From Thermoanaerobaculia bacterium (GTDB lineage: Bacteria; Acidobacteriota; Thermoanaerobaculia; Multivoradales; UBA5704), in contig JBIOUG010000010.1 of the NCBI GenBank assembly GCA_044866775.1, forward strand, positions 9,052-73,051: a DNA stretch of 64,000 nt. Direction: 5' to 3'. The translations under genes and the position numbers were made by a program. Below, one piece after another: positions 24,673 through 27,600 of this stretch. The notes under the pieces are model-generated. The model ran no database searches and was not told the origin of the DNA. It saw nothing but the letters and a program-made list of their open reading frames with translations. Within the stretch, counting starts at the first letter, position 1. Each line of letters starts with the position of its first letter.

Positions 24673-27600
24673 ATGGAGGACATGGAGGGGCCGGCGTTCA
24701 CCTGGGGGCAGGACTGCCTCCGTGTCCCGCCGCGAGCAGCATCCGCCCGCCTCCACGAGTTGGTGGAGGCGCAATGCGCGCGCACCCCGCACGCCGTGGC
24801 CGTCGTCTGCGAAGGGCGGCAGCTCACCTATGGCGAGCTCGACGAGCGCGCCGACTGCCTTGCCCACCGTCTCACTTCGTGCGGTGTCGGGCCGGAGAGC
24901 CTCGTCGGCGTCTCCCTCGAGCGCTCGCTCGAGCTGGTCGTGGGCCTCCTCGCGATCCTCAAGGCCGGAGGTGCGTACGTTCCTCTCGACCCCTCCTACC
25001 CGGAGCAACGCCTGGCTTTCATGGTCGAGGACGCGCGGGCGCCTGTGCTGCTCTCGGCAGGCGGTCTGGCCGGCGCCCTCCCGCTGCCTCCGGGTACGCG
25101 CGTGCTGCCGTTGGATGGCTTCGCCGAGGGTCCCCCGAGCATGGAGGGAAACGGCTCGCTGCCGAGCGCCCTCCGGCCATGGGCGGATCACCCCGCCTAC
25201 GTCATCTACACCTCGGGCTCGACCGGCACGCCGAAGGGAGTGGTGAACACCCACCGCGGCATCGTCAACCGCCTGCTCTGGATGCAGGAGGCCTATGGAT
25301 TGACCGCCGAGGATCGGGTGCTGCAGAAGACGCCCGCCAGCTTCGACGTCTCGGTGTGGGAATTCTTCTGGCCGCTCATCACCGGCGCGCGGCTGGTCCT
25401 GGCGCGGCCCGGCGGGCACCAGGACGCCGCCTACCTGGTCGAGCTGATCGCCCGCGAGAGCGTGACCACACTGCACTTTGTCCCCGCCATGCTCGCCACG
25501 TTCCTCGCCCAGCCGGGGATCGAGGGGCTGACCTCGATCCGGCGGGTGATCGCGAGCGGTGAGGCGCTCCCCTTCGACCTCGAGCAGCGGTTCTTCCGGC
25601 TGCTCCCCGCCGCGGAGCTGCACAACCTCTACGGCCCGACCGAGGCGGCCGTGGACGTCACCGCCTGGGCCTGTCGGCCCGCGGACGCGCGGCGCCCGGT
25701 ACCGATCGGCCGCCCGATCTCCAACCTGCACATCCACCTCCTCGGCCCGGACCTCCGCCCGGTGCCGCACGGCAAGGTGGGGGAGATCGGCATCGCCGGC
25801 AGCGGCCTCGCCCGCGGCTATCACCGTCGTCCGGACCTCACCGCCGAGCGCTTCGTTCCCAATCCTTGCGCCGGCGACGACGAGGCGGGCGCGCGGCTCT
25901 ACCGGACCGGCGATCTCGGTCGCTGGCTCCCCTCCGGCGACCTCGAGTTCCTGGGGCGCATCGATCACCAAGTCAAGCTGCGCGGCTTCCGCATCGAGCT
26001 CGGCGAGATCGAGGCGGCGCTCGACGAGCATCCGGGGGTCGAGGACGCCGTGGTGGTCGCCGCCGATGGTCCCGGTGGCGACCGCCGCCTCGTCGGCTAC
26101 CTGCGGCCGGATCGGCGGCGCGCTGCGGCGGTGCGGCGCTGGCTGCGTCTGGAGCGGGAGGGGCGGCTCGCCGGGCATCGCTTCCACGAGCTGCCGGACG
26201 GCACCGTGGTCGCCCACCGCGCCCGCGGCGAGACCGACTTCCTGTTCCGCGAGATCTTCGCCGAGCGCGCCTACCTGCGGCACGGTCTCGCAATTCCCCG
26301 CGGCGCCTGCGTCTTCGACGTCGGGGCCAACATCGGCCTCTTCGCACTCTTCGCCGGTCGCCAAGCGGCCGGCGTGCGGGTCCATGCCTTCGAGCCGATC
26401 CCGCCGCTCTTTGCGACGCTGCAGCTCAACGCCGAGCTGCACGGGCTGGACGTGCGGCTCCACGACTGCGGCCTGGCCAGCGCGGCCGCTGCTGGCACCG
26501 AGTTCACCTACTACCCCGAGCTGTCCCTGCTGTCCGGCCGCTTCGCCGACGCCGCAGAGGAGCGGGAGGTCATGCGCGCCTTCCTGGCCGCGCAGCAGCG
26601 AGAGGCCGGAGTCGCGCTCGCCGACGAGGAAGTGGAGCGGCTGCTCGACCAGCGGCTGCGCGCCGAGCGCTTCGTCCGGCCGCTGCGCACTCTCTCCGAG
26701 GTGATCGCCGAGGAGCGGGTCGAGCGCATCGATCTACTCAAGGTGGACGTCGAGAAGAGCGAGCTCGAAGTGCTCGCCGGTCTCACGGCAGCGGACTGGG
26801 AGCGGGTGCGTCAGGTAGTCGTGGAGGTCCACGACGCTGGTGGAAGGCGTGCGGCGGCCGAAGAGCTCCTCCGCCGGCATGGCTTCGCGGTCGCGGTCGA
26901 GCAGGAGCGGGCGTTGGCGCGCAGCGGGCTGTTCACGCTCTACGCCCGCCGCCCGGCGGAGGTGGTGATGCCCGCTGCGGCCGTAGCGCCGGCGGAGCGC
27001 GCGTGGTCGAGCCCCGGCCAGCTCGTGCGGGACGTGCGGAGCGCTCTTCGCGCGCGCCTGCCCGAGCACATGGTGCCGGCCGCCTTCGCGCTGCTCGAGG
27101 AGTTCCCGCTCACCCCCAGCGGCAAGGTCGATCGCAAGGCGCTGCCGGCGCCCGAGTCGCTCCGTCACGACGGGGAGGAGCGCGAGCACGTCCCCCCGCG
27201 CACCCCGACCGAGGAGGTCCTGGCCGGGATCTGGCGCGAGGTCCTCGGCGTCGAGCGGGCGGGAGCGGACGACAGCTTCCTGGATCTCGGCGGCCACTCG
27301 CTGCTCGCTGCGCAGGTGATCGCCCGCGTGCGCGAGGCTCTCGGCGCCGAGCTCGTGCTGCGCGACGTCTTCGATCATCCAGTGCTGGCGGCGCTGGCTA
27401 CCATCGTCGAAGAGCGGGGTGCCGGCGGACCTCCGGCGGACCCGATGGTGCGGGTCCCGCGGACCGGGGACCTGCCGCTCTCCTTCGCCCAGGAGCGCAT
27501 CTGGTTCCTGCAACAGCTCGACCCAACCTTGCGCTCCTACCAGTTCCAGTCGACGATCCGTTTTCGCGGTCCGCTCGACGCCGCGGCGCTCCGCCGGAGC

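Follow-up and report, generated by a model that had tools for sequence, protein, structure and literature searches.

Lundy, Mori and Garneau-Tsodikova (RSC Chem Biol 2020) sorted bacterial interrupted adenylation (A) domains into seven families (PMC8341866). Family 2a, written A8-Ms(O,Ser/Thr)-A9 and represented in NCBI by 149 examples, carries a 'type II' methyltransferase (M) domain of 290 ± 13 residues between core motifs a8 and a9; for its representative, module 4 of the kutzneride synthetase KtzH, both activation and O-methylation of L-Ser have been established biochemically (PMC8341866). Six motifs mark the type II M domain (PMC8341866, Table 1): i) EIFxxxxYxxxG, ii) (V/I)(F/I/V)DVGx(N/H)xG(L/M)F(S/T)L, iii) EPdP(E/P)xxxxx(R/A/E)xN, iv) FT(Y/F)YPxx(S/T)x(L/M)SG, v) (I/V)DLLKdD(V/A)ExxE and vi) WxxIxQdxxEVH. 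The junction between the A and M domains is marked by a boundary motif of its own, L(V/A/I)(A/G)(Y/F)xxP (PMC8341866). Motif ii is the FkbM signature.

The same enzyme family recurs among characterized biosynthetic gene clusters. Matches to Pfam family PF05050 within MIBiG clusters include KtzH, annotated with 'O-methylation of serine', FrsG, which provides the O-methyl group of N,O-dimethyl-Thr in FR900359, and OciA, which provides the O-methyl-glycerate starter of cyanopeptolin (Paoli et al., Nature 2022, PMC9259500, supplementary file 7); the OciA and ApoM3 domains are FkbM O-methyltransferases in MIBiG (PMC9259500). The KtzH interrupted A domain itself is credited to Zolova and Garneau-Tsodikova (2014), as cited in PMC11355689.

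Layout of ORF2 and its interrupted A domain

The window, by which we mean the entire 64,000-nucleotide stretch of DNA that was analysed, has a G+C content of about 73% and is dominated by three giant genes on the plus strand. The second of these, ORF2 (24664..30780; plus strand, as are all ORF2 and ORF3 features given below), encodes a 2038-residue nonribosomal peptide synthetase (NRPS) with the domain order A(M)-T-C-A-T. The corresponding order of Pfam matches is AMP-binding, Methyltransf_21, AMP-binding_C, PP-binding, Condensation, AMP-binding and PP-binding. Translation of ORF2 probably begins at an ATG (24673) that lies 9 nt inside the GTG start and is preceded by GGAGG. A look-up of the ORF2 protein with either start codon found no identical record.

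The N-terminal part of the first A domain, with core motifs a1–a8, comprises residues 35–450 (24766..26013; Pfam AMP-binding at residues 35–387), of which residues 431–450 (nt 25954–26013) constitute a8. The methyltransferase insert occupies residues 476–765 (26089..26958) and opens with the A/M boundary motif LVGYLRP at residues 476–482. As judged by motif positions, the A domain resumes at 26959..27147 with a9 (LPEHMVP, residues 799–805) and a10 (PSGKVDRKALP, residues 818–828, nt 27115–27147). The first T domain follows at 27205..27408, with approximate limits, and bears its phosphopantetheine serine in LGGHSL at residues 875–880; it was located by motif scan and by Pfam PP-binding, which matches two stretches in ORF2. 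Beyond it lie the Pfam-assigned condensation domain (residues 935–1396; 27466..28851) and a second, uninterrupted A-T module (28900..30720; Pfam, motifs and code extraction) with the specificity code DAWSLGHVVK. The spacing from a8 to a10 is 387 residues in the first A domain versus 91–146 residues in seven further A domains of the window, those for which both motifs were found, and the first A domain therefore harbors an insert of roughly 240–295 residues.

A sequence-only reading of this DNA had proposed an FkbM-family insert at 26120–26960, between A8 and A10 of the first ORF2 A domain. The strings on which it relied, namely the a8 motif, FDVGANIGLFALFAG (residues 551–565, nt 26314–26358) and PSGKVDRKALP, are all present in ORF2, and all but the last 2 nt of the interval at its 3′ end fall inside the boundaries given here. 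The insertion site was correctly placed and is now refined to the segment between a8 and a9.

Family membership and predicted fold of the insert

When the whole ORF was scanned against Pfam, PF05050 (Methyltransf_21) matched residues 552–741 with 53.9 bits (E = 3e-14). Scanned alone, the insert scored 59.1 bits against PF05050 and 95.2 bits against the NCBIfam model TIGR01444 (fkbM_fam), for which the curated cutoffs are 22.7 and 37.7 bits, respectively. The ORF2 insert is thus confirmed as an FkbM-family (PF05050/TIGR01444) methyltransferase, far beyond chance. In the comparison of Methyltransf_21 with Methyltransf_11/12/23 that the sequence-only reading had put forward as a check, only PF05050 was significant: Methyltransf_11 and Methyltransf_12 returned no match on the insert alone in the Pfam scan, and Methyltransf_22 (17 bits) and Methyltransf_23 (12 bits) remained below their own cutoffs.

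A motif scan of ORF2 residues 1–900 found neither of the type I motifs, E(I/L)GxGxG and (N/S)S(V/I)xQYFP. The absence of these motifs and of any significant match to the corresponding HMMs excludes a class I N-methyltransferase or Methyltransf_11/12/23 identity for the insert, and likewise its placement among the family 1 interrupted A domains of the TioS/cyclosporin type. TioS A4 and other family 1 members share with ORF2 the a8–a9 insertion loop, the boundary motif and the bifunctional A plus M logic, but they house a class I backbone N-methyltransferase of about 390 residues with ExGxGxG and NS(V/I)xQYFP motifs. A family 1-type interrupted A domain, with a Methyltransf_12 match at nt ~12425–12715, does occur in ORF1.

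All six type II motifs were detected in ORF2 by a regular expression scan, in their published order. Motif i (EIFAERAYLRHG, residue 530), motif iv (FTYYPELSLLSGR / FTYYPELSLLSG, residue 614) and motif v (IDLLKVDVEKSE, residue 689) are exact matches. Each of the remaining three departs from the consensus at a single position: A replaces S/T in motif ii (VFDVGANIGLFAL, residues 550–562; 26311..26349), which is the SAM-binding motif I and corresponds to the published ms(O,Ser/Thr,a8-a9)ii; Q replaces R/A/E in motif iii (EPIPPLFATLQLN, residue 577); and V replaces I in motif vi (WERVRQVVVEVH, residue 712). The substitutions in motifs ii and vi are conservative. The insert begins at the boundary motif between a8 and a9, its length of 290 residues coincides with the published 290 ± 13, and the code predicted for the host A domain, DVWHISLVDK, agrees with the L-Ser or L-Thr specificity of family 2a hosts.

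Judged by these sequence features, ORF2 module 1 is a KtzH-type family 2a interrupted A domain, and its FkbM insert is of a known, well-described sort. By published motifs and the HMM-hit table, KtzH (ABV56588.1) module 4 of Kutzneria sp. 744 and ORF2 are alike in the a8–a9 site, the boundary motif, an insert of about 290 residues, the type II motifs including DVGx(N/H)xG, FkbM/PF05050 membership and a Ser-specific A domain, the last being a prediction for ORF2. They differ in context: KtzH A4 belongs to an elongation module of an actinomycete hexadepsipeptide line, whereas the ORF2 domain is in the first module of its ORF, in a Gram-negative NRPS-PKS cluster. Type II/PF05050 O-methyltransferases are likewise found in ColG (columbamides; Ser) and FrsG (FR900359; Thr), but those modules add a backbone class I N-methyltransferase in back-to-back arrangement (family 5a), whereas ORF2 has the O-methyltransferase only. 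Two expectations of the earlier reading do not hold against this background. It had regarded an FkbM-type insert at this position as unusual, which the size of family 2a and its KtzH archetype contradict (PMC8341866), and it had associated O-methyltransferase inserts with VLExGxGxG, whereas inserts that O-methylate Ser or Thr are of the FkbM type (PMC8341866, PMC9259500).

Alignment with homologues bore out the retention of SAM-binding residues, a point on which the same reading had proposed to examine the insert. All 22–23 residues that are invariant among 16–18 diverse homologues are kept, among them those of the DVGANxG SAM loop and the DLLKxDxE motif and the acidic residue in FEP; D77, V78, G79, A80, N81, G83 and F85 of the insert are invariant in both homologue alignments. 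Among characterized enzymes, the insert is 41% identical over 270 residues to the cyanopeptolin OciA O-methyltransferase domain (E = 3e-68) and 33% identical to ApoM3. The OciA loading module (Planktothrix agardhii NIVA-CYA 116) resembles ORF2 module 1 in placing an O-methyltransferase on a carrier-bound starter unit; the OciA domain, however, interrupts no A domain: it sits after a glycerate-loading domain of the FkbH-like type, and its substrate is glyceric acid instead of serine.

An AlphaFold2 (AF2) model of the insert, built on 16 homologues, is compact and confident (pLDDT 91.9, pTM 0.89), with alternating β and α elements. In this model, the insert adopts a class I Rossmann-like SAM-methyltransferase fold, with the glycine-rich loop after β1 and the acidic residue after β2. 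The top 50 PDB matches listed by Foldseek are methyltransferases or methyltransferase-fold proteins with TM-scores of 0.31–0.47, normalised to the query; the best of these, SAM-dependent class I methyltransferases, are not close (TM ~0.45). PDB sequence and profile searches with the insert returned only marginal matches to unrelated class I methyltransferases and no solved homologue, and no structure of an FkbM-type interrupted A domain was found in the PDB by sequence, profile or Foldseek search.

Substrate code, relatives and assembly line context

We extracted the specificity code of ORF2 A domain 1 by mapping the Stachelhaus positions via the A4 (FDVS), A5 and A6 motifs. The resulting DVWHISLVDK is one residue off the EntF-type Ser code DVWHFSLVDK, and exactly this code is predicted as Ser in RlpB (PMC12964202). 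One uninterrupted A domain in ORF1 has the very same code, and two in ORF3 have codes that differ from it by at most one residue; to these three domains, ORF2 A domain 1 is 59–63% identical. The code of the Thr-coded A domains of the window is DFWNIGMVHK. Asp235 is present, and an α-amino acid substrate is therefore expected. ORF2 A domain 1 is thus predicted to be Ser-specific.

Searched against proteins, the insert gave 509 matches, many of them with the architecture AMP-binding/FkbM/AMP-binding_C/PP-binding, from Acidobacteriota, Gemmatimonadota, Actinomycetota, Pseudomonadota and Cyanobacteriota. When 185,579 species genomes were scanned, at least 354 confirmed relatives emerged; the closest among the matches listed, at 57% identity, come from Thermoanaerobaculia and Acidobacteriota metagenome-assembled genomes. 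Across 78 related loci, the codes of the partner A domains are mainly those for Ser (DVWH..., 15) and Thr (DFWN..., ~13). In a crude neighbour-joining tree, the ORF2 M domain clusters with those of two loci, L016 and L002, whose host A domains likewise bear Ser codes, and the surrounding clade consists mostly of members with Ser/Thr codes. In other genomes, A domains of the Asp, Glu and Gln types were also seen to carry FkbM-type inserts.

The relatives occupy more than one kind of position. For the 50 related loci with enough upstream sequence, a C domain lies directly upstream in 33 and is absent in 17. ORF-initial A(M)-T modules also occur in Gemmatimonadetes (L033), Verrucomicrobiota (L060) and Kofleriaceae (L020); the Kofleriaceae locus repeats the A(M)-T-C-A-T layout of ORF2, and its next ORF begins with a C domain, and a Lentzea locus (L021) encodes A(M)-T as a stand-alone protein.

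That no C domain precedes ORF2 module 1, as the sequence-only reading had stated in treating it as a loading module, was upheld. The first A domain begins at about residue 35, which leaves no room for a C domain in this module, and a hidden upstream C domain is excluded by an in-frame stop at 24646, 18 nt ahead of the GTG start, together with an intergenic gap of only 318 nt between ORF1 and ORF2. ORF1, whose 5′ end lies beyond the window edge and whose stop is at 24346, terminates in KS-AT-ACP-TE. ORF3 (30789..48311; 5840 residues) follows ORF2 at a distance of 9 nt, starts with a C domain and likewise ends in KS-AT-ACP-TE. Because ORF1 ends in a TE and ORF3 has this organization, ORF2 and ORF3 together constitute a self-contained assembly line with five NRPS modules and a single PKS module, which ORF3 continues and terminates. 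ORF2 module 1 thus appears to be the starter of the ORF2–ORF3 NRPS-PKS line.

The window holds two paralogous NRPS-PKS lines. ORF1 carries an in-line sulfotransferase domain, a feature that it shares with the OciA synthetase family. Housekeeping genes come after the NRPS genes in the window, and the TonB-dependent receptor and MurJ encoded downstream of the NRPS genes indicate a Gram-negative host. KtzH needs KtzJ, its MbtH-like partner; by contrast, a motif scan found no MbtH-like gene in the window.

Proposed function and competing explanations

Taken together, a model for ORF2 module 1 emerges, in which the module very probably makes O-methyl-L-serine as the N-terminal residue of the ORF2–ORF3 product by means of a KtzH-type interrupted A domain. 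Going by its specificity code and the order of the domains, A domain 1 would adenylate L-Ser and load it as a thioester on the first T domain. The FkbM-type domain, looped out between a8 and a9, would bind S-adenosylmethionine through its DVGANIG loop and the glutamate of FEP, both of them invariant in family alignments, and would use this cofactor to methylate the side-chain oxygen of the Ser-S-T intermediate. The order of events, load and then methylate, is suggested by analogy with the KtzH and TioS literature. The condensation domain would then accept O-Me-Ser-S-T as its donor and join the O-methyl-L-seryl unit with the residue loaded by the second A domain. Because ORF2 does not open with a C domain and ORF1 before it closes with a TE, the O-methylserine would be placed at the N-terminus of the NRPS-PKS product. 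The +14 Da N-terminal residue that the sequence-only reading had predicted can accordingly be sharpened to a putative side-chain O-methylation of L-Ser, for which the predicted residue mass is 101.05 Da.

The regiochemistry of methylation is the point at which the starter position matters most. EreM, a PF05050 member, carries out N-methylation on peptide backbones (PMC9259500), so that family alone does not guarantee O-regiochemistry, and the α-amine in a starter module is free and accessible. An EreM-like methylation of the α-amine of the starter serine, or of both N and O, nevertheless strikes us as highly improbable: the full set of six motifs in the insert is that of the type II class of side-chain O-methyltransferases, whose representative KtzH O-methylates Ser; its closest relatives reside mostly in elongation modules with Ser/Thr-coded A domains, as the 33 of 50 loci with an upstream C domain illustrate; and EreM is, according to Paoli et al. 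(PMC9259500), the only N-methyltransferase reported for the family. These observations point to O- rather than N-methylation by the ORF2 insert. We give equally little weight to the broader proposal that a starter-position insert facing a free α-amine acts unlike KtzH, whether by EreM-like N-methylation or by an O-methylation that primes the serine for, e.g., elimination; if true, such action would put a type II M domain to a functionally new use, in an uncharacterised NRPS-PKS product of an uncultured-type Gram-negative bacterium.

A second explanation concerns the identity of the starter residue. Specificity codes are predictions, and among the A domains that host type II M domains, Thr codes are about as frequent as Ser codes; the module could thus act on Thr or another hydroxylated amino acid. 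The residue could also be acylated in trans, N-acylation of this kind being common among NRPS products, and the product would then not start with a free O-methylserine. We hold either departure to be very unlikely. DVWHISLVDK is a textbook Ser code that is matched in ORF1, nearly matched in ORF3 and predicted as Ser in the literature, and the Thr-coded domains of the window read differently. As for acylation in trans, the window shows neither a free starter C domain nor an acyl ligase; the 5′ part of the cluster is beyond the window edge.

That the insert is a catalytically dead relic in a module that merely loads serine, as one might suspect from three of six family motifs being one residue off the published consensus, has scant probability given that every invariant residue is kept, DVGANxG, the FEP acidic residue and DLLKxDxE among them, that the AF2 model is confident and compact, and that two of the three substitutions (S/T to A and I to V) are conservative, the third being Q for R/A/E. 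The conserved residues suggest instead that the ORF2 insert is catalytically active, in keeping with the O-methyl-L-serine starter proposed above.

On this assignment, the module can be annotated as A(oMT)-T with O-methyl-L-serine as its predicted building block, which aids structure prediction for the ORF2–ORF3 product. The assignment also corrects what is likely a recurring misconception, in that Ser/Thr O-methylating inserts belong to the FkbM family (PF05050) and not to the VLExGxGxG class, and a DVGANxG motif between a8 and a9 is to be expected. The ORF2 module leaves the current understanding of NRPS enzymology unchallenged.

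Paired assembly lines and their 3′ border

Two paralogous NRPS-PKS assembly lines lie side by side, the first consisting of ORF1 (window 2-24346) and the second of ORF2 and ORF3 (24664-48311). Both lines end in the order C-A-T-KS-AT-ACP-TE, and the last ~3700 aa of ORF3 share 65.6% identity with the C-terminal part of ORF1. Of the two lines, that of ORF2 is the sole carrier of the FkbM insert, and ORF1 alone has a sulfotransferase domain, together with an insert of the class I N-MT type (Methyltransf_12, nt ~12425-12715). Directly 3′ of the NRPS genes, window 48600-64000 carries housekeeping-type genes encoding an RlmL-like rRNA methyltransferase, a molybdopterin oxidoreductase, an RNase D-like protein, MurJ, and a TonB-dependent receptor. 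Because of these genes, MurJ and the TonB-dependent receptor among them, the 3′ border of the cluster is placed near 48.3 kb and the host is Gram-negative, despite the 73% G+C content of the window. A motif scan found no MbtH-like ORF anywhere in the 64-kb window.

The in-line sulfotransferase of ORF1

The ORF1 sulfotransferase is a Sulfotransfer_3 domain (window 5087-5728, + strand; Pfam E 2e-23) positioned in-line, with a T domain on one side and the next C domain on the other; the A domain preceding it is Thr-coded (DFWNIGMVHK). The ~310 aa containing this domain are absent from the paralogous ORF3 stretch, the alignment progressing from 1645 to 1958 in ORF1 while ORF3 advances from 2272 to 2277. 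An NRPS with an in-line sulfotransferase domain has been described for the cyanopeptolin synthetase OciA (PMC2533009), and an in-line NRPS sulfotransferase at the position seen in ORF1 is uncommon. Its placement suggests that the ORF1 line furnishes an O-sulfated Thr residue.

FkbM-type domains in other genomes

We searched for protein homologues using the FkbM insert and the first ~400 aa of KtzH, the representative of the published insert class, as seeds. All matches in both searches were shorter than ~700 aa, so architecture statistics describe proteins below that length only; megasynthases were seemingly outside the search scope, since full-length NRPSs must possess the same domains, yet no long matches were returned. 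Among the matches, six stand-alone Streptomyces proteins of ~484 aa (P0077, P0083, P0086, P0099, P0110, P0114) pair an FkbM-type domain with a PP-binding domain. They retain no more of the A domain than a remnant of its C-terminus, and they resemble an M-T fragment cut out of an interrupted A domain.

Among the related loci, FkbM-type inserts also occupy the same a8-a9 site in A domains with Asp-like (DLTK...; L010, L026, L039, L045, L047-L049, L062, L063, L065), Glu-like (DAKD/DTKD...; L028, L038, L042, L054, L056, L059, L061, L071, L077, L078), or Gln-like specificity codes (DAWQ/DASQ; L025, L031, L037, L050) instead of Ser/Thr codes. In a crude NJ tree, the M domains hosted by these A domains mostly form separate clades of their own, L010, L026, L045, and L048 being the exceptions. 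These sequence patterns hint at further subtypes, with methylation of a carboxyl group (to a methyl ester) or methylation of another kind, beyond the published ‘Ser/Thr’ label.
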